Positions 119-10,277 of a stretch of DNA of 10,277 nucleotides are shown one piece after another. The position numbers and the translations under genes are program-made. The stretch comes from Candidatus Odinarchaeota archaeon (GTDB lineage Archaea; Asgardarchaeota; Odinarchaeia; Odinarchaeales; Odinarchaeaceae), in the NCBI GenBank assembly GCA_038826135.1, contig JAWBON010000041.1, positions 1-10,277 of the forward strand. The letters run 5' to 3'. Numbering within the stretch: position 1 is the stretch's first letter; each line of letters starts with the position of its first letter. Below the pieces are notes generated by a model, which was not told where the DNA came from, did not search any database, and saw nothing but the letters and a program-made list of their open reading frames with translations.

Positions 119-874
119 GTGATTTTTTTGGAGCGCGAGGTTGAGATTAACGAGAACGCTAAGATACCTGAATCCCCTATAATTCTTCTAGGGTTACCGG
201 ATACTGGTCTTGTAGGTGTTATAGCTACTGCTCACATATTAGAGATTAATAAACCGAAGTATTTAGGTTCAATCGACTCTATATATTTCCCTCCAATGAT
301 CGTCATCCATAACGGGGAGATAATGGCTCCTGTTAGAATATACGGTCAAGGCAGCATAGTATCACTTATATCCGAGATCACTTTACCCGTGAACGGTATG
401 GATAAGATTGTAGATGCCATAGTATCCTGGTTGCAGGAGAAAAAACCACGCCTCGTCCTTTTCCTAGGTGGTATACCCGCCCCTAACAGGATGGAGCTTG
501 AAAGATCAACCTGCTACGCTGTGCCTACAAGCTCTGAACTTGTTAAACAAGTAGAAGAGTTGAATATACCCCGGCTGCTAGAGGGTTTAATGGTTGGACC
601 GTACGCTCTTCTGTTAAAAGAGTGTAAAAAGAAGGGGATTCCCTCTATAGCTCTTTTAAGCGAATCATATGCTAATTACCCTGATCCAGGTGCAGCTGCC
701 TCTGTGATAGAAACACTGAATAAAATAATTGATTTAAATGTTGAAATTGAAAGTTTACTGAAGAAAGCTGATGAGATTAGAATAAATATGAGAGATTTAA
801 TGAGACGGACCGCTAAAGAGATGAAGCAAGCTGAAAAATCCAGGGAATATGAGCTACCTCCACTATATATGTAG
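119..874 (+). CDS. PAC2-family proteasome assembly chaperone / PbaB-like proteasome activator
   Basis: Motifs IILLGLPDTGLVGVIAT, YLGSIDSIYFPP, LVLFLGG, MVGPYALLL, YPDPGAAA and a helical C-terminus ending LYM (HbYX). GGTGA at 118-122 could be the RBS for an in-frame TTG at 128-130, which may be the true start. Confidence 0.9.
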   Translation: MIFLEREVEINENAKIPESPIILLGLPDTGLVGVIATAHILEINKPKYLGSIDSIYFPPMIVIHNGEIMAPVRIYGQGSIVSLISEITLPVNGMDKIVDAIVSWLQEKKPRLVLFLGGIPAPNRMELERSTCYAVPTSSELVKQVEELNIPRLLEGLMVGPYALLLKECKKKGIPSIALLSESYANYPDPGAAASVIETLNKIIDLNVEIESLLKKADEIRINMRDLMRRTAKEMKQAEKSREYELPPLYM

Positions 875-876
875 GG

Positions 877-1335
877 GTGTTAGACGTGTCTAATGATGAA
901 TATTATGGTTTAGATGAATACATTGATAAGATTTTACAGAGACTGAGAAGACAGATGGATAGAGCTCTCCCGCTAGCTGATTTATCAATGGAATCCAGCT
1001 GGGATATTGAAGAAGGATGTATGGAGCCCCTCTTCCAGTTACAGGAGAAAGAGAATGAGATTGTTGTAAGCGCTGATCTCCCCTTAGTTAAGAAGGAAAG
1101 CATTAAAATAAAAGCTGATGAGCAGACAGTTGAAATATCGGCTGAGACTGTTAAAGAAATAGCGTTCGATAAATGGTGGGCTTCTCAGCGTAAAAAAGCA
1201 TTCTGTCGTTTCCATAAGAAAATAACTTTACCAACTAAAATAATACCTGAAGAGGCGAAAGCCTGTTTTAAAAACGGTATACTTATATTAACTCTTCCAA
1301 AGAAGAAGCGCGTTTTTGAAATAAAAGTTGAGTAA
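877..1335 (+). CDS. Small heat-shock protein (Hsp20/alpha-crystallin family)
   Basis: Alpha-crystallin core EIVVSADLPLVKKESIKI...FHKKITLPTKIIPEEAKACFKNGILILTLPK and C-terminal I-x-V (IKVE). It starts 2 nt after the PAC2 stop. AGGGGTG at 873-879 may be the RBS for an in-frame GTG at 886. Confidence 0.9.
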   Translation: MLDVSNDEYYGLDEYIDKILQRLRRQMDRALPLADLSMESSWDIEEGCMEPLFQLQEKENEIVVSADLPLVKKESIKIKADEQTVEISAETVKEIAFDKWWASQRKKAFCRFHKKITLPTKIIPEEAKACFKNGILILTLPKKKRVFEIKVE

Positions 1336-1410: not shown

Positions 1411-3270
1411 TTAAAGTTTATCTAAGCCTAATTCCTTGAGTTTTTCCTCTGATGGTATGCCCTTCGGCCAGCCTTTAACTTTGAAGTACTCTTCTCTCAT
1501 CTCTTTCAAAGGCGGTACTAAGCCAGCCGCTCCACCAGCTTTTCTAGCTGTGAAGAATCTCTTCGGTAGCCAGTAGTCTCTCTCCGGGACTAGACCGTGC
1601 TTTATATTGAACATGTTCATTAATGTGACTATTCTCTCACCGACTTTAAGCAGATCCTGTGGGGTCATATTCCACCCTGTGACAGCGTTAGTTAAATTCG
1701 TTATTCTTGTGAAATTATATCCTGAAAACTCGTAGAAGAAGCAGAATACTAGTGAGTTAGCTACAGCCATTCTATCCTGGTATTTCGCAGCTGCAAGACC
1801 CTTCAGTTTAGTGTCGTGTGGATCCATAGGCTTACTTAATTGAGGTCCAGCTTCAGGGAAGGTGACTCCCAACTCTATAGCTTCTGGGAAGCCGTGCAGG
1901 TGGCTCGCACCCTTCATAGAAGTCGCTGTCTCAACAGCCATAGACATGAATGCGCGTGGATCATGTGCTGGTACCACTGCGCCGTTGACGTGAAGCGCCA
2001 GATCAGGGCAGCCTAGTTTTTCACCAGCAGGTCTTACACCTTCACCTAGTAAGGTTGGTATTTTACCTTTTCTATGAGCTATGTCTTCTAAGAGTCTTAG
2101 CATGGCATCCCCGTCACCCCATTTAAGCTCGTAGCCTAGGTCGGCCTTCTTGATATAGCCTTTCTCATAAGCTTCCATCGCAAAAGCGCAGACTCCACCG
2201 AACTCTATGGTGTCGATACTGTACCTGTTACATAACTCGTTCGCTTTGTTTATCGCTAGAAGGTTATCTATCAAGCAGTCTGATCCAATCATTGCCAGTG
2301 TCTCATATTCAGGACCGTAGCTGTCCATAGCGTATTTTTCAGGTGTCTTCATGGTCACTCTTCTATGGCATCCCATTATACAATTTGAACACGCGTCTGG
2401 TTTAGGTTTAAGAACCTTGTTGAATTCACCGCCAGCTGAACCTATTTTCTTAGCGCCCTCAATCCAACGGGACTCTAAGAAGTTTTTAATCGGCAGCAGA
2501 CCGTTTTCCTCTCTAGGTATCACAGCCATAGCCTGGCCCTCTTCACGGTTAGCTTTAGTGAAATCCGCTTTCTTAGCGTCTTCAGTAGCTTCTTTTCTAA
2601 GCTGAGCAAGCTCATCCGGTCTCGCTATTGGGACCTTCTTAGTTCCTCTGAAGGCTAAAGCTTTCAGTTTCTTTGAACCCATGACAGCTCCCATGCCTGT
2701 TCTACCAGCACAGCCGTGCCCGTAGTTGCAGATTAGACCAGCGTATCTTACAAGGTTCTCTGCAGCAGGCCCTATGGGCGCTACTTGTATTTTATCATCT
2801 TTCAACTCTTTTTTTATAGCATCCTCAGTCTGGTAGGCGTCTAGTTTACCCCACATGTGAGAAGCGTCTTTAATCTCAGCTTTACCATCGCTTACAAACA
2901 CATAGACCGGCTTAGCCGACTTACCTTTAACAACTATTGCGTCAAACCCTGTTTTCTTAAATTCCTCAGAGTTATAGCCCCCTCCTAAAGACTCCCCGAA
3001 TATACCTGTTAAAGGAGACTTCGCGCATGCTGAAAAACGTCCACTTCCAAGTATAGCGGAACCACCCTGCCATGGACCTGTTGCGAAAACGAACACATTA
3101 TCCGGTCCGAGTGGATCAGCACCCGCAGGGATCTCCTTATACATTATATAGGCTGCTAACCCTGTTCCGCCCAGAAACTTCTTGTACACATCCTCAGGGA
3201 TATCTCTGGTTTTAATTTTATGGTTTGTAAGATCTACTTCAAGTATCTTTCCCCAATATCCACCAGCCAT
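1411..3270 (-). CDS. aor: Tungsten-containing aldehyde:ferredoxin oxidoreductase (AOR family)
   Basis: 619 aa with GYWGKILEVDL, FLGGTGLA, KSPLTG, AGRTGMGAVMGSKKLKA, a [4Fe-4S] cysteine set C294-x2-C297-x3-C301 plus C510, GPEYET, HDPR and GASH. RBS GGGAGGT lies 6 nt before the ATG. The exact AOR subfamily and substrate are not determinable. Confidence 0.92.
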   Translation of the reverse strand: MAGGYWGKILEVDLTNHKIKTRDIPEDVYKKFLGGTGLAAYIMYKEIPAGADPLGPDNVFVFATGPWQGGSAILGSGRFSACAKSPLTGIFGESLGGGYNSEEFKKTGFDAIVVKGKSAKPVYVFVSDGKAEIKDASHMWGKLDAYQTEDAIKKELKDDKIQVAPIGPAAENLVRYAGLICNYGHGCAGRTGMGAVMGSKKLKALAFRGTKKVPIARPDELAQLRKEATEDAKKADFTKANREEGQAMAVIPREENGLLPIKNFLESRWIEGAKKIGSAGGEFNKVLKPKPDACSNCIMGCHRRVTMKTPEKYAMDSYGPEYETLAMIGSDCLIDNLLAINKANELCNRYSIDTIEFGGVCAFAMEAYEKGYIKKADLGYELKWGDGDAMLRLLEDIAHRKGKIPTLLGEGVRPAGEKLGCPDLALHVNGAVVPAHDPRAFMSMAVETATSMKGASHLHGFPEAIELGVTFPEAGPQLSKPMDPHDTKLKGLAAAKYQDRMAVANSLVFCFFYEFSGYNFTRITNLTNAVTGWNMTPQDLLKVGERIVTLMNMFNIKHGLVPERDYWLPKRFFTARKAGGAAGLVPPLKEMREEYFKVKGWPKGIPSEEKLKELGLDKL

Positions 3271-3323
3271 AGTTTAACCTCCCGCCGATTAATCGAACGG
3301 TAAATATAATTTTATTATTAATT

Positions 3324-3340
3324 ATATATATATGTTTTTG
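3324..3340 (-). promoter_or_regulatory. Putative BRE + TATA promoter of aor
   Basis: Minus strand reads CAAAAAC-ATATATATAT about 55 nt upstream of the aor ATG. The region is very AT-rich, so placement is uncertain. Confidence 0.45.
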
Positions 3341-3415
3341 TAAAAAAATTACTTAAACATACATATATTTAATTTTTTAAACTAATCTCTAAATGATTAA
3401 AATATACATTCCGTG

Positions 3416-3432
3416 TTAAAAACTTTTAAATA
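3416..3432 (+). promoter_or_regulatory. Putative BRE + TATA promoter of the class-III PLP enzyme gene
   Basis: A-rich TTAAAAAC followed by TTTAAATA (3425-3432), about 55 nt before ATG 3486. Confidence 0.5.
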
Positions 3433-3476
3433 ATACTTATCCTAGTAAATAATATTTGCCTAAATAATTTTTAAAG

Positions 3477-4838
3477 GTGAGATTTATGGTGAAAATGACA
3501 ACAGAGCAAGCTATCGAAAAATCTAAGAAATGGTGCCTTCACGGCTGGGGTTTCATACCCATAGCTGTAGAATCTGCTAAAGGAGCTATATTCAAAGACT
3601 TGAATGGAAAGGAATACTTAGATTTCCTATCTCAGACCGCGGGCGTCCTAGGTATAGGTCACACACATCCGAAAATGGTTGCAGCTGTTAAAGAACAGCT
3701 TGAAAAAATACAGCACGTTCTGACAGGGTTCGTTATTCCAAGTCGTGCTGAATTCGGTGAGAAACTCGCCGCTGTAGCTCCACCCCCGCTGACAAACAAT
3801 TGCATGATGTATATTGCATGCGGTGGGTCAGAGGCTAACGAGACTGCGTTAAAAATGGCGATGTTAATAACCGGTAAGAAAGAGGTTATATCACAATATC
3901 ACGCATACCACGGTGGAACACTTGCTTTAATGGGCTTGTTAGCGCAAGCACCGCATAGAAAAGGCTTCCTAAGATACCCTGGTTTCCACAACATACCTGC
4001 TACCCCCTACTGTTACAGATGTTATCAAGGTAAAAAATACCCTGACTGCGATCATGAGTGTGCAAGACAGTTAGAATACCACTTAAAGTGGGGTGTTGAA
4101 GAAGACTCTGTAGCCGCGTTCATACAGGAACCGATAACTGGTAACGGCGGTCACATGGGTCCGAACGACAACAATCATAAGAAGGAACCTGATAAAGTAT
4201 ATCACAAAATAATCAGAGAAACATGTAACAAATACAATGTGCTATATATAAGCGATGAAGTCCAGTGTGGTATGGGTAGAATGGGTAAGAACTGGGGCTG
4301 CATGGTTTACGACATGAAACCGGACATATTCACAACAGCTAAAGCCCTAGGTGGAGGCCTGCCTGTTTCAGCAGCGGTAATCCGCAAAGACCTTGTACCT
4401 GAGAAAATGAAGGAAGCCCAGTGGCATATATTCACTATGGGTGGCAGTCCGATAACAATGGCTGCCGGCATAGCAGCGCTAGACGTTTTAGTTGAAGAGA
4501 GACTGGCTGAAAAAGCTAAGACTCAGGGCGAGAGAATGTACAAGGTTCTGAAAGAATGGGAGAACACTCACAAAATAGTCGGCGAAGTCCGCGGTGAGGG
4601 CTTATTCATCGGAATAGAGCTTGTAAAAGACAAGAAATCTAAGGAGAAAGCTATAGACGCGGCTGGCGCGGTCTTCTCAAAATGCTTAGAGAAAGGTCTA
4701 CTGCTAGGTGTCTCCGCAGTAGGCGGATGGGGTAACGTATTGAAACTAAAGCCTCCTCTAGCAATACCCAACGATCAGGCTGACAAAGGTCTGGCTATAA
4801 TAGAGGAAGCGATCAAAGAAGTCGCGAAGAACATGTAA
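3477..4838 (+). CDS. Class-III PLP-dependent enzyme (aminotransferase-III fold); possibly a phospho-lyase rather than a transaminase
   Basis: Motifs GKEYLDF, GSEANETALKMA, YHAYHGGT, FIQEPITG, ISDEVQCGMGRMG and PDIFTTAKALGGG (PLP lysine K289). The C-terminal NVLKLKPP replaces the usual NVIRxxPP. The likely start is ATG 3486, with RBS AGGTGA at 3475-3480. Confidence 0.9.
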   Translation: MRFMVKMTTEQAIEKSKKWCLHGWGFIPIAVESAKGAIFKDLNGKEYLDFLSQTAGVLGIGHTHPKMVAAVKEQLEKIQHVLTGFVIPSRAEFGEKLAAVAPPPLTNNCMMYIACGGSEANETALKMAMLITGKKEVISQYHAYHGGTLALMGLLAQAPHRKGFLRYPGFHNIPATPYCYRCYQGKKYPDCDHECARQLEYHLKWGVEEDSVAAFIQEPITGNGGHMGPNDNNHKKEPDKVYHKIIRETCNKYNVLYISDEVQCGMGRMGKNWGCMVYDMKPDIFTTAKALGGGLPVSAAVIRKDLVPEKMKEAQWHIFTMGGSPITMAAGIAALDVLVEERLAEKAKTQGERMYKVLKEWENTHKIVGEVRGEGLFIGIELVKDKKSKEKAIDAAGAVFSKCLEKGLLLGVSAVGGWGNVLKLKPPLAIPNDQADKGLAIIEEAIKEVAKNM

Positions 4839-4843
4839 ACAAT

Positions 4844-4859
4844 CCCCTCTATTTTTTTT
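4844..4859 (+). terminator. Oligo-T terminator of the class-III PLP enzyme gene
   Basis: CCCCTCTA-T8, 5 nt after the stop codon. Confidence 0.6.
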
Positions 4860-4974
4860 AAATTTTAATCTATTTTTCAATTTATTTAGAAAAGTAAATA
4901 TTAAAACAAGTTTTCCACTTATCGAGGAGATGTTAACCTAGAGTTTTCTGTAAACTTTTAATAATAAAAATTAT

Positions 4975-4990
4975 AAAAAAATAGAGAGAA
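4975..4990 (-). terminator. Oligo-T terminator of the gldA-like gene
   Basis: Minus strand TTCTCTCTA-T7, 3 nt after the stop codon. Confidence 0.6.
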
Positions 4991-4993
4991 ATT

Positions 4994-6118
4994 TTAATGT
5001 TCGCAACCGCACTTCTCATGGTATTCTGTACCGATAGCATCAGTTGCTAAAATAGCATCTTTAACCAGCTGAGGTGTTATATTCAGCGGCATATTGCCCA
5101 TCGTGTCATGTGGATCGCATGCTTTCTCAGCTGCTTTCATAAGATCGTTTTCACTGACAGCCCCTATACCGAGCTCTTTTAATGTTATCGGTAGACCCAG
5201 CTCATGCACCCAGCTGACGATACTCTCCACCTCTTCAGGAGCTCTGCCTTCAAGTATCAGTTGAGTTATAGTACAGTAAGCTACAAGTTGACCATGCTCC
5301 ACGTGGAGGCCTGGCACGATTGTTAAACCGTTATGTGTAGCATGAGCTGCAGCTAGACCTGAGCTTTCGAATCCGAGGCAGCTTAGTAATTTAACAGATT
5401 CAATTATTTTCTCTACAGCTGGTGTAAGCAACTGTTTTTTAGCATCCTTCGCTGCCTGTACACCGTAAGTCATGAGGTTTTCGAAGCATAAATGTGTTAA
5501 AGCCACAGCGGCTGCGGTTGATCTTCCTCCTGGTATATTTTTAGCATTCGGTTGAGCTGCGCACGCGTCAGCTTCGAACATACAAGCTAAAGCGTCCCCC
5601 ATACCCCATGTTATAAATTGAGGAGGCGCTTTCGCTAATATCTCTGAATCCACTAAAACTAGGTCAGGGTTCTTTGGATGGAATAAGTATTCGACAAACT
5701 GGTGTTTCTCCGTATATACTACTGATAAACCGCTCGCATCAGCGTTAGTCGCGCACTGTGTTGGCACTGTTACAACACTAGCTTTCATCTTAACAGCTAC
5801 CGCTTTAGCTGTATCCGCTGATTTACCGCCGCCGATTCCAATAACTATGTCGGCTTTGGACTCTTTTCCGATAGATACGAGTTTATTTATCGTGTCATGG
5901 GTGCACTCTTTAACAGTTGGGTCTTTGTGAACAACTTCCACACCGTTCTTTTTTAGACTTTCAGTGATTATATCCCCTGTCACTTTCATAGCTGTAGGGC
6001 CGCCGAATATCACGGCTCTCTTACCTAGTAGTTTAACCTGTTCCCCTATCTTATATATTGCTCCACGGCCTTGAACATATCTGCTTGGAGATACGAGTAT
6101 TTTCGGCACTTCGACCAT
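4994..6118 (-). CDS. gldA: Glycerol dehydrogenase-family (GldA-like) metal-dependent alcohol dehydrogenase
   Basis: Motifs SPSRYVQGRGA, GIGGGKSADTAKA, VPT, GMGDAL (D175), ESSGLAAAHATHNGLT (H259) and HG (H275); the metal ligands are spaced as in GldA. RBS GAGGTG lies 7 nt before the ATG. The substrate-site motif deviates, so the symbol denotes family rather than proven function. Confidence 0.8.
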   Translation of the reverse strand: MVEVPKILVSPSRYVQGRGAIYKIGEQVKLLGKRAVIFGGPTAMKVTGDIITESLKKNGVEVVHKDPTVKECTHDTINKLVSIGKESKADIVIGIGGGKSADTAKAVAVKMKASVVTVPTQCATNADASGLSVVYTEKHQFVEYLFHPKNPDLVLVDSEILAKAPPQFITWGMGDALACMFEADACAAQPNAKNIPGGRSTAAAVALTHLCFENLMTYGVQAAKDAKKQLLTPAVEKIIESVKLLSCLGFESSGLAAAHATHNGLTIVPGLHVEHGQLVAYCTITQLILEGRAPEEVESIVSWVHELGLPITLKELGIGAVSENDLMKAAEKACDPHDTMGNMPLNITPQLVKDAILATDAIGTEYHEKCGCEH

Positions 6119-6216
6119 TTAGTCACACCTCTTTTTTATTAGATTCAGCCCGGGATCTTCATTTTAAATAATTTTTAAGCCGTTTTTTCAGATCCCTTAA
6201 TTAACCTTATTTATTG

Positions 6217-6226
6217 TTATATATAA
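6217..6226 (-). promoter_or_regulatory. Putative TATA box of the gldA-like gene
   Basis: TTATATATAA preceded on the minus strand by AAAGCAACAA; this implies a leader of roughly 75-80 nt. Confidence 0.4.
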
Positions 6227-6254
6227 TTGTTGCTTTAATTTTACAGCGATAATA

Positions 6255-6284
6255 TATTTTTTATAATAAATATTATAAAAAATA
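6255..6284. repeat. Perfect 14-bp inverted repeat with a 2-nt spacer in the divergent gldA/permease promoter region
   Basis: TATTTTTTATAATA-AA-TATTATAAAAAATA, read directly from the sequence. Confidence 0.85.
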
Positions 6285-6290
6285 AAAATA

Positions 6291-6308
6291 ACCAAAACTA
6301 TTTATATC
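6291..6308 (+). promoter_or_regulatory. Putative BRE + TATA promoter of the APC permease
   Basis: ACCAAAACTA followed by TTTATATC (6301-6308), about 55 nt upstream of ATG 6360. Confidence 0.5.
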
Positions 6309-6359
6309 ACCGAATCTAAAGTAATAAATTAAAATCTCTAAAATTAGGAGAAACCTAGA

Positions 6360-8027
6360 ATGGCAACTGAGAAGGAAGTCTTCATTAGGAAGGCCTCAGG
6401 TCTAACTAGGGTTATAAGCGCGTGGGATGCGTTAATATACGCATTCTGCAACCCTGGCATACTATACTGTATGCTATATATAACCTGGGGTCCTTGGGGT
6501 GTCGGTCCAGGTGCTGATATGCCATGGGCGGTAGTAACAGTCTTCATGCTCTTGCCTATTCAAGCACTCTACTGGTTGTTCTCGGTTAGCATGCCCAGAA
6601 GTGGTGGCGAATACTTATATGTCAGTAGGATAATCAGTCCCGCATTCGGTTTATTCGCTTCATGGACCTTAACAATCGTTGGCATGTCTTGGACAGGCCA
6701 ATGCACAACCTGGATGATAAACTACGGTATAGGTGGCATGTTCCTGAACGGGGGTATTCTCGCACGGGATGTAGGCCTTCTAAACATTGGTAACATATTA
6801 GGTGATACAAGTCTTATCCAATATGGTGGTACCCCATATACCGCTGCAATAATCTCAGTAATAGCAACAATATCTCTCATATCGACATTCTATATAATGT
6901 ACCGTGGTGCTAAAGCCTCTATGAGACTAAGCTGGATCTGCTCAGCTATAGCTACAGTGGGTCTTCTATGCTTCGTAGCTATCGCATGGACTTCAGGTGA
7001 AACAGTGTTCGTAAACAATGTGAACACGATCTGGAGTGACCCGACGATTCAATCAAGCGGATACTTCGCATACACTAACTATGCTGCGTATATAACAGAT
7101 GTTATAGCCGCAGGGTACCCAGGTCACCCTGAACTTATAGGTACAATATTCGCTGGAACAGCTTATGTGAACCTTAACACTTTAGGATCCACATATACTA
7201 CAAGCGCTGCTGGAGAGATTAAAGGAGTCTCATTCGCTCAAGGATTAGCTCTACTCGGTTCAATAATAATGTTCATGGGTTACTGGGAGCTCTTCTACGC
7301 TTCAGCCTACGTTGGCTGCGGCTCAGACTTCTGGTGGGGTATAGCTTATGCCGAAAATGGTGGAATAGACTATGCTGCTTTCGGTACAATGGCTAACGGT
7401 ATTACGGTAGCCCCCTACCTGTCAGATAATCCATTCCTAGTATGGATGGTTGCATTCGGCTTCGTTGCAGCCACCTATGGTAGTGTACTGGGAATGTCCT
7501 TCGGACCCGTCAGAAACATGTTCGCATGGTCATTTGACGGTGTTTTACCGAACTGGTGGAACAAAGTTGACAGAAGAGGCTCACCATGGGTATCCGTCAT
7601 GGCTGGTTGTATAATCGCATGGGCGTTCATGATGCTCTACACATGGACTTCACTGCTTTACTTGATTCTATGGACGATAACAGTATGGTTCATCGGCTGG
7701 ATAATCGTAGGCATAGCCGGTATGATATTCCCGTACAGGAGAAAGGACATCTTCGAGAAATCACCCGAACTAGTTAAGAAGAGAGTCGCCGGACTTCCTG
7801 TAGTAACCATACTAGGCGCGTTAACCACAGGCATCAGCGTGTTCACCGTATGGGTTACACTGGCCCCCTCATTCGTATACGGTTGGGGTCTTGATCCTCT
7901 CTCACTGGGTGGTACAGTCCTATTCTTAGTAGTATGCCCGTTCGTGTTATACTACGCTGCCTACTTCTACAGGAAGAGTAAAGGCGTTCCCATGGACCTG
8001 AGGTTTAAGGAGATACCTCCTGACTAA
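6360..8027 (+). CDS. APC-superfamily amino acid/amine permease
   Basis: About 12 hydrophobic segments by eye; N-terminal FIRKASGLTRVISAWDA, SMPRSGGEYLYVSR, AGEIK, RNMFAWSFDGVLP and C-terminal FKEIPPD, typical of archaeal APC permeases. RBS AGGAG at 6346-6350. Confidence 0.9.
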   Translation: MATEKEVFIRKASGLTRVISAWDALIYAFCNPGILYCMLYITWGPWGVGPGADMPWAVVTVFMLLPIQALYWLFSVSMPRSGGEYLYVSRIISPAFGLFASWTLTIVGMSWTGQCTTWMINYGIGGMFLNGGILARDVGLLNIGNILGDTSLIQYGGTPYTAAIISVIATISLISTFYIMYRGAKASMRLSWICSAIATVGLLCFVAIAWTSGETVFVNNVNTIWSDPTIQSSGYFAYTNYAAYITDVIAAGYPGHPELIGTIFAGTAYVNLNTLGSTYTTSAAGEIKGVSFAQGLALLGSIIMFMGYWELFYASAYVGCGSDFWWGIAYAENGGIDYAAFGTMANGITVAPYLSDNPFLVWMVAFGFVAATYGSVLGMSFGPVRNMFAWSFDGVLPNWWNKVDRRGSPWVSVMAGCIIAWAFMMLYTWTSLLYLILWTITVWFIGWIIVGIAGMIFPYRRKDIFEKSPELVKKRVAGLPVVTILGALTTGISVFTVWVTLAPSFVYGWGLDPLSLGGTVLFLVVCPFVLYYAAYFYRKSKGVPMDLRFKEIPPD

Positions 8028-8028
8028 A

Positions 8029-8049
8029 CCCTCTGTTTTTATTTTTTTT
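8029..8049 (+). terminator. Oligo-T terminator of the APC permease
   Basis: CCCTCTG-T5-A-T8, 1 nt after the stop codon. Confidence 0.6.
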
Positions 8050-8141
8050 ATTTTAATCTTTAACAAGTTAATTTTATAAGCCAATCAAAAAAGTCATCCA
8101 AATTTTTATAGCGCTATTTTTATATTTAATCCCCTTTTTCG

Positions 8142-8157
8142 CGAAATACTTAAATAT
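8142..8157 (+). promoter_or_regulatory. Putative BRE + TATA promoter of the phosphoesterase-nucleotidyltransferase pair
   Basis: CGAAATAC followed by TTAAATAT (8150-8157), downstream of the permease terminator. Confidence 0.5.
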
Positions 8158-8171
8158 ACTGTAAAAATAAT

Positions 8172-9164
8172 ATGATGCAAAAAGTGAAGGTTGGTGTGAA
8201 ATTAATGGTAAAAACAAGATTGTTTTTCGCAACAGATGTGCACGGTTCGGAAGTATGTTTTAGAAAATTCCTTAACGCGGGTAAATTCTACGGTGTTAAA
8301 ACATTGATATTAGGCGGTGATATAACTGGGAAGATGATCGTCCCCGTTGTTAAAAAAGAGGGTGGCGTATATGAGGCTAAATACTACGGTACAGTTCATA
8401 AGGCTAAGTCTGAGGATGAGTTAAATAAGCTTAAAAGACTCATTCGCGACGGTGGCTTCTACCCGTTTATAACGACAGAGGACGAGATGAAGGAGCTTGC
8501 TAGTAAAAACGTTAACGTCGACGAAATCTTCAAAGACCTAGTTCTAGACACACTTAGAGGATGGGTTAAATTAGCTGAGGAGAGGTTGAAGCCTGAAGGT
8601 ATAAAACTATACATGACAGGCGGCAACGATGACATAGCTGAAATATCAGATATTTTAAGAAGCTCCGATTATATCATAGATCCTGAGGGAACTGTTGTTA
8701 ACATTGACGGTGAACATGAGATGGTAAGCACCGGGTATTCGAATATAACACCTTGGAAATGTCCGAGAGATATAGGTGACGATGAACTTTGGAAAATAAT
8801 TGAGAAAATGCTTAAAGAAGTTAAAGATATGAAGAAAGCGATATTCAACTTTCACGTTCCACCCTACGATGTCCCACCACTCGACTCAGCCCCAGAACTT
8901 GATGAAACCCTTAAACCAATAATGGAAGGAGGCTCAGGGTTAAAGATGATACCTGTGGGTAGTAAAGCTGTTAGAAGAGCTATCGACGAATATCAGCCGC
9001 TTCTAGGTTTACACGGCCATATACATGAAGGCAAAGGCGCTATAACAGTTGGGCGGACACTATGCGTTAACCCTGGCAGTGAGTATGGTGAAGGTATATT
9101 AAGAGGTGTGCTAGTAACAATTGATAAAGATCAGGTAAAAGAATACTTGTTCACGTCTGGTTAA
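8172..9164 (+). CDS. Calcineurin-like metallophosphoesterase (Icc-related)
   Basis: All five motifs are present: TDVHG, GGDITG, GGNDD, FHVPP and GHIHE, followed by NPGSEY. The likely start is ATG 8205 (RBS GGTG at 8193-8196), since the TATA box at 8150-8157 would place transcription start downstream of ATG 8172. Confidence 0.9.
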   Translation: MMQKVKVGVKLMVKTRLFFATDVHGSEVCFRKFLNAGKFYGVKTLILGGDITGKMIVPVVKKEGGVYEAKYYGTVHKAKSEDELNKLKRLIRDGGFYPFITTEDEMKELASKNVNVDEIFKDLVLDTLRGWVKLAEERLKPEGIKLYMTGGNDDIAEISDILRSSDYIIDPEGTVVNIDGEHEMVSTGYSNITPWKCPRDIGDDELWKIIEKMLKEVKDMKKAIFNFHVPPYDVPPLDSAPELDETLKPIMEGGSGLKMIPVGSKAVRRAIDEYQPLLGLHGHIHEGKGAITVGRTLCVNPGSEYGEGILRGVLVTIDKDQVKEYLFTSG

Positions 9165-9189
9165 ATCTTAAAAATAAAATTAACGGAGT

Positions 9190-10020
9190 GTGACCTATAT
9201 GTCATCTGACGAAGCGATTTTAGGTGAGGCTTTGAGATTAATCGATGCAGCTGAGAAAGAGGGAATAATACTGAGAATAATCGGAGCTGCAGCGGTTAGA
9301 CTGAAATGCGTTGACTTCAGAGAGCTTCACAAATCATTCAGGCAGTTAACTGACGTAGATTATATGTCTTATTGGAAATATGAGAGAAAGGTTGACGAAT
9401 TCCTTGAAAAACAGGGATATGCACCTTTACGTTCAGCTGTAACACCGGGTCTATTCGTAGGTAGACGCGTTTACAATGATAAAACCGGTCAGAACAGAGC
9501 GCATATAGACGTATTCTTCGACGAATTAGATATGTGCCATAAAGTCGACTTTCGTGGAAGGCTTGAAATAGATAAGCCTACAATATCAGTAACAGACCTG
9601 GTTTTAGAGAAAATGCAGATTGTTGAAATAAATGAGAAAGACATAAAAGATCTTTGCATAATATTCGCTCAGTTCCCGCTCTCCGAAAAGGATGAGCCGA
9701 ACAGTATAAACAAGAAGTATATCGCAAAAATACTAGCTAAGGAATGGGGTTTCTGGTATACTTTAACAACTAATCTGGATAAAGTTAGAAAATTCATAGA
9801 AAAATACACTCAGCAGGGAATTTTCAACGAACAGCATAAGGCGACAGTTCTGCAGAGAACCCAGGAATTGCGTGAAGCAATAGATAAGGAAGGTAAGAGC
9901 TTCGGTTGGAAGATGAGAGCTAAAGTTGGAACAAAGAAGATCTGGTATAATCCAGTCGGCGAGGTTGAGAGGGCGCCTCACTTAGAGGAATATAAGCCGA
10001 AAGAATATCGGCAAGATTAA
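9190..10020 (+). CDS. Uncharacterised protein with Pol-beta-superfamily nucleotidyltransferase-like motifs
   Basis: hhGxxAV (IIGAAAV, G32), D-x-D (TDVD, D55/D57), third acidic strand (HIDVF, D107) and K141...KDxxD (K150-D151-x-x-D154). The likely start is ATG 9199, with RBS GGAGTG at 9185-9190. The reading frame is solid; the fold call is by motif recognition only. Confidence 0.65.
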   Translation: MTYMSSDEAILGEALRLIDAAEKEGIILRIIGAAAVRLKCVDFRELHKSFRQLTDVDYMSYWKYERKVDEFLEKQGYAPLRSAVTPGLFVGRRVYNDKTGQNRAHIDVFFDELDMCHKVDFRGRLEIDKPTISVTDLVLEKMQIVEINEKDIKDLCIIFAQFPLSEKDEPNSINKKYIAKILAKEWGFWYTLTTNLDKVRKFIEKYTQQGIFNEQHKATVLQRTQELREAIDKEGKSFGWKMRAKVGTKKIWYNPVGEVERAPHLEEYKPKEYRQD

Positions 10021-10103: not shown

Positions 10104-10277
10104 CTAATCTTTACTGAAATACTGGTCCAGTTTAGATTGAGGTTGCCTTCTACTAATTTCACTAATCCGTGTTAAAGCAGATTTAACACGGTCTAAAGAG
10201 AAATCGTGTTTCACATGGAGTAATTCAATTATCTGATCAGATTTAGGCTCACCCCAGAAAAGGGTATACTCCCTAGT
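10104..10277 (-). CDS. fen: 3' end (partial) of flap endonuclease-1
   Basis: Manual translation of the minus strand gives TREYTLFWGEPKSDQIIELLHVKHDFSLDRVKSALTRISEISRRQPQSKLDQYFSKD*. It shows the FEN-1 W-x-E-P and HDFSxDRV motifs and a PCNA-interacting PIP box QSKLDQYF (10116-10139). Stop TAG at 10104-10106. Confidence 0.88.
   Translation of the reverse strand, partial: TREYTLFWGEPKSDQIIELLHVKHDFSLDRVKSALTRISEISRRQPQSKLDQYFSKD

Follow-up and report, generated by a model that had tools for sequence, protein, structure and literature searches.

How could an aldehyde oxidoreductase, a pyridoxal 5′-phosphate (PLP) enzyme, a glycerol dehydrogenase homologue, a permease, a phosphoesterase and a nucleotidyltransferase, encoded side by side, serve one purpose in a member of the Odinarchaeia, which are uncultured Asgard archaea with small genomes? 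The question is raised by a contig of Candidatus Odinarchaeota archaeon (JAWBON010000041.1 of assembly GCA_038826135.1), the whole of which, 10,277 bases, is referred to here as the window; it is the complete contig C41 of a metagenome-assembled genome (MAG) of 1.26 Mb that is 93% complete. An original prediction described the six genes at 1411-10020 as two divergent pairs plus a two-gene unit and read them as one catabolic system for a phosphorylated amino alcohol or phosphodiester. The layout, the families and the orientations are borne out by the open reading frames, all six of which are intact and lie on the strands stated, and the same genes are present in a closed genome of the same genus (1,418,269 bases) with 89-96% amino-acid identity. 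As had also been claimed, no described pathway of this kind was found in the literature searched.

The block consists of two coupled modules, Module A with the permease, the metallophosphoesterase (MPE) and the nucleotidyltransferase (NTase), and Module B with the PLP enzyme of what is here called the K-clade, the aldehyde:ferredoxin oxidoreductase (AOR) and the GldA-type dehydrogenase. Judging from the gene neighbourhoods compared below, the six genes are functionally linked, and this linkage goes beyond chance. A single catabolic system built from the two modules, in which an amine would be broken down via an aldehyde with the help of an uptake cassette, has in our estimation about an even chance of being the correct reading. 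The six genes and the evidence for their assignment are as follows.

1411..3270, minus strand: AOR, tungsten-type (Pfam AFOR_N and AFOR_C, match to 1AOR)
3477..4838, plus strand: class-III (fold-type I) PLP enzyme of the K-clade (Pfam, GabT alignment, motif table)
4994..6118, minus strand: GldA-type (family III, metal-dependent) glycerol/diol dehydrogenase (NCBIfam PRK09423, match to 1KQ3)
6360..8027, plus strand: divergent APC-superfamily permease (Pfam AA_permease_2)
8172..9164, plus strand: MPE of the aq_1956/TT1561/MJ1162 group (alignment, predicted structure, Foldseek)
9190..10020, plus strand: NTase of the Pol-beta fold with a C-terminal helical domain (alignment, predicted structure, Foldseek)

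The active site of the PLP enzyme

The PLP enzyme matches PF00202 (Aminotran_3; 1.6e-84, 284 bits), and its residues were compared in a motif table of 120 homologues with E. coli GabT and the paralogue from its own genome as alignment references. The cofactor residues K289 (catalytic), D260, Q263 and T320 align with those of GabT and are invariant. E. coli GabT has a gateway Glu at E211, an Arg at R398 and a distal-carboxylate Arg at R141 (PMC8154272 suppl. Fig. S1). At the positions of E211, R141 and R398, the window enzyme carries N223, G147 and K423, as do about 75 members of its clade, and a second invariant Lys, K425, lies clade-wide within the stretch K423-L-K425-P-P. The clade has a sharp edge: GN..K.KPPL, GNGG and YHGG are found in all of the approximately 80 proteins of at least 45% identity, after which identity falls to at most 37% and the Arg is retained. 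Glu and Arg are likewise retained at the GabT positions by the class-III paralogue of the same genome. As far as the alignment tells, the enzyme has the fold and cofactor residues of an ordinary 2-oxoglutarate-dependent GabT-type aminotransferase and lacks its gateway and carboxylate residues. This defines a well-bounded, unstudied class-III PLP clade whose active site argues against ordinary amino-acid transamination. Among 72,556 plasmids, no K-clade member was found, all matches being below 36% identity.

The solved structures closest to the enzyme point in another direction. The best of them is the broad-specificity racemase of P. horikoshii (9WRF; 4.6e-68, 233 bits), and an isoleucine 2-epimerase is also among the best, which would suit an amino-acid racemase or epimerase within a cluster for amino-acid fermentation, in an organism that we take to be a peptide fermenter. 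When the C-terminal 69 and 23 residues were used as probes of the PDB, the matches were again racemases, dialkylglycine decarboxylase and epimerases, all with the Arg; the same probes returned neither the human phospho-lyase 6TOR nor the Arthrobacter A1RDF1 phospho-lyase 5G4I. Because these closest solved relatives keep the alpha-carboxylate Arg where the K-clade has Lys, a racemase or an amino-acid transaminase appears unlikely. Identity to the racemases is only about 35-40%, and the constant aldehyde-oxidising partner of the clade would have no role after a racemase, so that the racemase reading as a whole is highly improbable.

The original prediction had taken the enzyme for a phospho-lyase of the ETNPPL/PHYKPL type. 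Fold, cofactor residues and the loss of the carboxylate-binding Arg are indeed shared with ETNPPL, PHYKPL and A1RDF1 (6TOR, 5G4I); this loss fits a substrate without a carboxylate, and the aldehyde product of such a lyase would suit the window AOR. The Lys in place of R398, together with the second invariant Lys, would suit a phosphate, and ETNPPL presumably carries K-x-K-P-P. A search for NF004799, the family in which a kinase is fused to a class-III domain, gave no match, nor did it give one in the control genomes. Yet the K-clade is no more similar to these phospho-lyases than to racemases and transaminases: 6TOR comes only 12th among the solved relatives (186 bits, 7.9e-54), outscored by racemases, BioA-like enzymes and dialkylglycine decarboxylase, and 5G4I is not among the 60 best. 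Nor does a kinase accompany the PLP gene in any of the about 13 independent contexts of the clade that were examined. With 6TOR ranking so low, similarity does not speak for placing the enzyme in the ETNPPL group.

Another precedent is PbfA, the (R)-1-hydroxy-2-aminoethylphosphonate ammonia-lyase, a class-III "aminotransferase" that also lacks the GabT gateway Glu and Arg; PbfA is really a lyase, and such substitutions can mark a 1,2-elimination giving an aldehyde (PMC8154272). Because a class-III enzyme without the gateway residues can be a 1,2-eliminase, a lyase activity is possible for the window enzyme by analogy. The two differ in that PbfA is 35% identical to the window enzyme, which scores 274 bits against an NCBIfam cut-off of 525, and in that a Vibrio copy carries Gln in place of the K-clade Lys; the window is devoid of phosphonate genes. 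The "flipping" Arg of omega-transaminases lies about eight residues upstream of the GabT R398 position and corresponds to the position of PbfA K438 (PMC8154272). In an indirect mapping, the Lys that Vibrio PbfA has at this omega-transaminase position falls opposite a Gly in the window enzyme. A PbfA Lys at the R398 position itself was considered and rejected, as the copy from the Vibrio phnW-pbfA-phnX locus has Gln there.

Several further features of this family were observed. In the Odin genus, the PLP enzyme has an 8-residue insertion (..NDNNHKKE..) at residues ~229-239 (window ~4150-4180), just after the GNGGHM that replaces the GabT gateway Glu, and this insertion is absent from the other aligned clade members. 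A four-cysteine segment, YCYRCY..C...C (residues ~199-217, window ~4070-4130), is kept in the clade and in archaeal paralogues, is absent from E. coli GabT and may form a metal or disulfide site. Two orthologues look damaged, possibly through assembly errors or decay: in a long-read Bathyarchaeota MAG (L025, 2716-3819), truncation or a frameshift leaves a protein of 367 aa whose C-terminus is unrelated, and G360:C49:14221-15537 has an in-frame TAA. In three genomes of a sister family (L116, G005:C4; L117, G004:C186; L118, G006:C6), a paralogous class-III aminotransferase of ~33% identity, with Glu and Arg kept, contains an in-frame TAG in a shared position, within an insertion of 10 codons that homologues lack (..DGNR-stop-NHTASVFQKYIDL..). 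This insertion can form a hairpin that is conserved in all three genomes with apparent compensatory changes, and PylS gave no match beyond the cut-off. Possible explanations are a mini-intron within a protein gene, programmed readthrough and a shared pseudogene.

Genes that accompany the PLP clade

The AOR is matched over its full length by Pfam profiles (AFOR_N 2e-74, 250 bits; AFOR_C 5e-110, 369 bits) and is one of two paralogues in the Odin genome. Its closest solved structure is P. furiosus AOR (1AOR; 4.4e-119, aligned residues 4-617), which it resembles in both domains. The P. furiosus enzyme serves amino-acid and amine fermentation in the role envisaged for the window AOR, that is, the oxidation of PLP-derived aldehydes with ferredoxin as acceptor. 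Unlike it, the window AOR belongs to a clade with a genetic tie to a single PLP clade, with which it appears to move between domains. The GldA-type enzyme exceeds the NCBIfam cut-off for glycerol dehydrogenase (PRK09423, 406.6 bits vs 336), falls below the equivalog cut-offs for glycolaldehyde reductase (354) and propanediol/glycerol dehydrogenase (323), and has the T. maritima glycerol dehydrogenase as its closest solved structure (1KQ3, 8.5e-90).

An AOR-family gene lies within 10 kb of the PLP gene in nine of the about 13 contexts. In five of them (Odin, the sister family, Bathyarchaeota L025, Thermoleophilia L050 and the bacterial MAG L111) it belongs to the particular AOR clade that accompanies the PLP enzyme, with 70-75% identity across domains, including between Odin and the bacteria (L050, L111). 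Orthologues of at least 70% identity directly adjoin the PLP orthologue in L024, L016, L025, L050 and L111, and in L111 the two genes are adjacent and co-directional. Both clades are rare: of 400 Asgard genomes, eight carry a member of the PLP clade, and an AOR of at least 70% identity only in the six where the PLP gene is adjacent. This indicates, on comparative grounds, that the AOR and PLP genes move between domains together, so that the AOR can be regarded as a dedicated partner moving with the PLP clade between Archaea and Bacteria.

The other companions are more variable. A GldA-subfamily gene is found in four contexts (Odin, the sister family, L050 and L106/L107), in the last two beside the PLP gene, and the permease/MPE/NTase trio in six, including a Thermoleophilia bacterium and Bathyarchaeia. 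GlcDEF-like FAD/CCG oxidases occur in four contexts, alanine dehydrogenase in two (L106/L107 and L112) and an amino-acid permease of some kind in nearly all. In about half of the contexts (L105, L108, L109, L110 and L112 among them), the PLP clade is accompanied by other permeases and by neither phosphoesterase nor kinase, and a phosphorylated intermediate supplied by neighbouring genes is therefore not required. In L109 and L110, a ~680-aa protein (weak BPL_N match) and a ~120-aa protein stand behind the permease in place of MPE and NTase, and may be an alternative accessory pair.

Could the six genes be adjacent by inherited synteny only, with no common substrate? In the window, orientation alternates and each gene has a separate putative promoter region; most loci with the trio elsewhere are devoid of AOR, PLP enzyme and GldA; and the gene order that Odin shares with the sister family continues into housekeeping genes on both sides, GatA/GatB on one and FEN1, PIN and NAD kinase on the other. 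Synteny with the sister family was consequently rejected as proof of linkage, since the flanking housekeeping genes are syntenic too. Against a loose neighbourhood, the PLP clade, the AOR clade, the GldA type and the trio are regrouped, non-syntenically and with order and orientation changed, in distantly related members of both domains (L025, L050, L106/L107 and L111, the last with the adjacent PLP and AOR genes). The families thus co-occur elsewhere in archaea and bacteria, as the original prediction needed. Because two rare clades are found together in both domains, with varying gene order, a shared function and transfer as a unit would be the natural account, and a loose neighbourhood is improbable.

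The permease, phosphoesterase and nucleotidyltransferase

The permease matches AA_permease_2 (45 bits vs a Pfam cut-off of 27) and has no solved relative at E 0.01; against the ethanolamine permease family TIGR00908 it reaches 29 bits, over residues 359-440 only, where the cut-off is 381.75. Its most conserved stretch is a cytoplasmic N-terminal motif, [FY]xRxx[ST]G[LM]x[RK], found in 51/55 full-length members with an invariant Ser (36) or Thr (15); in Odin it reads F8..R10..S13 G14 L15..R17 (window 6360-6440). This motif may serve as a site of modification or as a gating element. The orthologous permease of the sister family (L017 8956-10893, and L016) is 645 aa long, being extended at the N-terminus and enlarged by an insertion of ~65 residues close to Odin residue 474.

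The MPE, for which more than 8000 homologues were found, scores 18 bits in Pfam, below the cut-off of 21.5; in the alignment of its family, the five metal-binding motifs of calcineurin-like phosphoesterases are invariant, DxH, GD, GNDD, H and GHxH (D11/H13, D39, N141, H217 and H272/H274), and the dimetal site is intact. Its predicted structure (pLDDT 93) has the beta-sandwich fold of these enzymes and matches aq_1956 (2yvt, 1.5e-12) and TT1561 (1uf3), each with a Foldseek probability of 1.00, and MJ1162 in Swiss-Prot (1e-12). The window protein shares the fold and the metal-binding motifs of these uncharacterised COG2129-type proteins, and differs from them by an inserted cap region of ~85 residues and by GNDD as motif III. 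As there is no known substrate among them, they give no functional lead.

For the NTase there is no Pfam match. Its model (pLDDT 88) has a Pol-beta NTase fold whose nearest Foldseek relatives are MenT1 (8an5), ANT(2'')-Ia (5kqj/4xje) and LnuA (4fo1), and its atlas clusters are named nucleotidyltransferase and carry NTP_transf_5, DUF2204 and Aminoglyc_resit. G32 of the Gly loop, D55xD57 and D107 are invariant, giving it the Gly loop, DxD and third Asp of the Pol-beta core of ANT(2'')-Ia, LnuA and MenT/AbiEii. In contrast to these, it has an extra conserved helical domain (TM-scores to ANT(2'')-Ia, LnuA and MenT are modest, 0.35-0.38 by query), it lacks any antitoxin or resistance context, and it is as a rule paired with the phosphoesterase and permease. 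An AbiEii/MenT toxin-antitoxin system was rejected on these grounds, there being no Pfam match, hence none to DUF1814, and the constant neighbours being a phosphoesterase and a permease instead of an antitoxin.

The distribution of the three genes was surveyed by scanning one genome per prokaryotic species for NTase relatives, which yielded 80 loci in at least eight phyla of both domains, among them Asgard archaea, Bathyarchaeia, Thermococci, Chloroflexota, Actinomycetota, Alphaproteobacteria and Planctomycetota; partners were counted by local tblastn and clustering of all open reading frames in these loci. The MPE is present in 71/80 and the permease family in 59/80, a minimum since several contigs break off close by, and no further family exceeds 14/80. 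AOR-family genes are found in 10/80, GldA in 2/80 and class-III genes in 6-8/80, only three of them of the window's PLP clade. Since MPE and permease are so frequent and AOR, PLP enzyme and GldA mostly absent, permease, MPE and NTase form a self-standing cross-domain cassette, a trio that no paper found in our literature search describes. The view of the six genes as one system consequently holds in part: their recurrent co-location in other orders and lineages sustains it, whereas the system is composite and the trio mostly lives without PLP enzyme, AOR and GldA. The variable neighbours of the trio are mostly enzymes of nitrogen compounds, namely a GmaS-like "type III" ligase, an MttB-like methyltransferase, an F420-type luciferase-like (LLM) oxidoreductase and alanine dehydrogenase. 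Two trio or NTase copies lie within 20 kb of each other in several Bathyarchaeia, a Hodarchaeota MAG and an Anaerolineales MAG (L019/L096, L057, L060, L073, L023), which suggests paralogous cassettes for different substrates.

These data bear directly on the route first proposed for the window, in which a glycerophospho-amino-alcohol such as a lipid head group is imported, the MPE splits it into polyol and phospho-amine, an ETNPPL-type lyase releases aldehyde, phosphate and ammonia, the AOR oxidises the aldehyde and GldA oxidises glycerol. The intact dimetal phosphoesterase site and the true GldA-subfamily enzyme beside the PLP gene in four lineages speak for such a route, as do the two Lys of the PLP pocket, a Phospholip_B gene near the cluster in metagenomic contigs L106/L107 and FGGY sugar/polyol kinases beside the trio in 10 loci. 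However, these FGGY proteins score as xylulokinase, not glycerol kinase, and GpdQ is not among the 50 best PDB or 30 best Swiss-Prot structural matches of the MPE, although this does not by itself exclude the activity. The MPE is almost never found without the NTase, its tightest partner, for which the scheme has no use; the trio mostly lacks PLP enzyme and GldA; and the PLP clade does without phosphoesterase or kinase in the five loci listed above. A phosphodiester would, moreover, have to pass through an APC carrier, and we know of no APC carrier that transports phosphodiesters. With the low rank of 6TOR and 5G4I added, the scheme finds little support and fits least well, and we regard it as unlikely.

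Proposed route and transcription units

Altogether, the preferred reading is that Module A, a cassette found in both domains, serves the uptake of small nitrogen compounds and that Module B provides the carbon path. The permease would import a primary amine without a carboxylate, since the carboxylate-binding residues of the PLP enzyme are lost; the likeliest candidate would be a C2-C3 amino alcohol resembling ethanolamine or 1-amino-2-propanol, or the anionic (phospho) ester of such a compound. The PLP enzyme would remove the amino group to give an aldehyde, in a transamination with pyruvate or glyoxylate as acceptor or else in a 1,2-elimination. The AOR would then oxidise the aldehyde to the acid with reduction of ferredoxin. 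The GldA-type enzyme could act as a redox valve by reducing the (hydroxy)aldehyde to a diol, or could interconvert amino alcohol and aminoketone. A skeleton that retains its hydroxyl is favoured because of the GldA and GlcDEF-like neighbours (for example ethanolamine to glycolaldehyde, glycolate and glyoxylate, or the C3 equivalent), and the alanine dehydrogenase neighbours favour transamination linked to pyruvate. On this comparative evidence, transamination is slightly ahead of elimination; it had been named as the simpler alternative to phosphate elimination, and, with the hydroxyl kept, it agrees with the presence of alanine dehydrogenase and of 2-hydroxy-acid oxidases resembling GlcDEF next to the PLP gene in other loci.

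NTase and MPE, finally, would act on a constant target and not in the carbon path, either by reversible nucleotidylylation of the N-terminal Ser/Thr motif of the permease, with S13 as the candidate residue, or by making and breaking a nucleotide signal. Three observations favour a constant target: both proteins are better conserved than the permease (median identity to Odin across the 35 loci with all three genes is 47% for MPE, 42% for NTase and 26% for the permease), the best-conserved part of the permease is this very motif, and Module B also occurs with other permeases in the absence of NTase and MPE. An analogy, and no more, is offered by AmtB-GlnK-GlnD, in which a carrier is controlled by reversible nucleotidylylation; here too a transporter is encoded with a nucleotidyltransferase and a removing enzyme, but the window has neither a PII protein nor homologous domains, and S13 is no more than a candidate target. 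A joint structure prediction of permease and NTase scored 0.00 and speaks neither for nor against binding.

Several points weigh against this reading, in addition to the inherited synteny discussed above. The clues to the PLP reaction conflict, for a pocket with two Lys would suit a phosphate or sulfonate and a lyase, whereas GlcDEF, GldA and alanine dehydrogenase neighbours suit a transamination that retains the hydroxyl. For alanine dehydrogenase, the closed Odin genome yielded only partial matches of at most 29.7 bits, none of them clear, and the enzyme was rejected as the Odin partner on that account. Membrane proteins often diverge faster than soluble ones, which makes the asymmetry in conservation weak evidence, and the N-terminal motif of the permease may be structural, as ordinary APC carriers have a conserved basic motif before the first transmembrane helix. 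The nearest folds of the NTase, lastly, are small-molecule O-nucleotidyltransferases (ANT(2''), LnuA) and tRNA-acting MenT toxins, not protein-modifying enzymes.

In a different use of the two proteins, they stand in for a kinase: the NTase would O-nucleotidylylate the imported amino alcohol, the MPE would cleave on the nucleoside side to leave an O-phospho-amino alcohol, and the K-clade enzyme would eliminate phosphate to give an aldehyde, from which the AOR would form acid and reduced ferredoxin, with GldA interconverting aminoketone and amino alcohol. All six genes would then have a role, the nearest folds of the NTase do nucleotidylylate hydroxyls of amino-sugar drugs, and no convincing amino-alcohol kinase was found in Odin (APH matches at most 38 bits). 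The route would be an archaeal analogue of the RMM1 amino-alcohol/aminoacetone locus of Mycobacterium and Rhodococcus, which follows the same logic with a permease, an alcohol dehydrogenase, an APH-type phosphotransferase, a class-III PLP enzyme and an aldehyde-oxidising enzyme (PMC4207490). Compared with RMM1, the window lacks the microcompartment shell genes and the phosphotransferase, has AOR instead of a coenzyme A-acylating aldehyde dehydrogenase and GldA instead of a short-chain dehydrogenase/reductase, and adds NTase and MPE, which are not part of RMM. The Mycobacterium member of the PLP clade (47% identity) lies outside the RMM locus, beside a permease, PdxS and an acetyltransferase; it was rejected as the RMM phospho-lyase, since its locus has no shell or kinase genes and it carries His in place of the Lys. 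About half of the PLP-clade contexts have neither NTase, MPE nor kinase, and elsewhere the trio stands beside quite different downstream enzymes (GmaS-like, MttB-like). The scheme would also be energetically wasteful, ATP being spent to nucleoside and pyrophosphate, and no precedent for it is known to us. A kinase substitute is thus distinctly improbable; if true, it would provide a B12-independent and kinase-independent route for ethanolamine or aminopropanol in anaerobes, Asgard archaea included, and a new archaeal and bacterial clade of class-III phospho-lyases.

On the preferred reading, amine catabolism via an aldehyde with a constant target for NTase and MPE, the window would hold a system not previously described, a form of amine catabolism coupled to a putative uptake cassette. 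The PLP clade and its AOR would be linked to a widespread permease/phosphoesterase/nucleotidyltransferase cassette whose chemistry, once solved, would supply an annotation for thousands of genes that at present bear the label "metallophosphoesterase" or "hypothetical protein". Each catabolic route that can be assigned constrains the possible feeds for enrichment cultures of Odinarchaeia, and the bacterial carriers (Thermoleophilia, Chloroflexota and Alphaproteobacteria loci) are more tractable sources of the enzymes.

The regions between the genes, read directly, complete the picture of the locus.

3271..3476, no strand: AOR/PLP intergenic region, AT-rich, putative divergent promoter region
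6119..6359, no strand: gldA/permease intergenic region, AT-rich, putative divergent promoter region
8028..8204, no strand: permease/MPE intergenic region, an oligo-T tract behind the permease stop codon, then AT-rich sequence resembling a promoter

Comparison with orthologues places the likely true starts of the PLP, MPE and NTase genes at 3486, 8205 and 9199, respectively. Oligo-T tracts lie 3′ of the PLP gene and 3′ of the permease gene, and the gap between the MPE and NTase genes is 25 nt. The tract and the promoter-like sequence between permease and MPE genes suggest that these last two genes form a transcription unit of their own; three or four such units are proposed for the six genes.

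Beyond the six genes, PAC2 proteasome-assembly chaperone and Hsp20 genes (window 119-1335) stand between GatB and the AOR gene in the Odin genus; in the sister family they are not at that place, and GatA-GatB directly precede the AOR gene. At the other side, the contig ends inside the 3′ part of a FEN1 flap-endonuclease gene (10104-10277, minus strand; 67% identity to the closed-genome orthologue), and the genes for FEN1, PIN and NAD kinase come after the trio in Odin as well as in the sister family and the Hodarchaeota MAG (L023).

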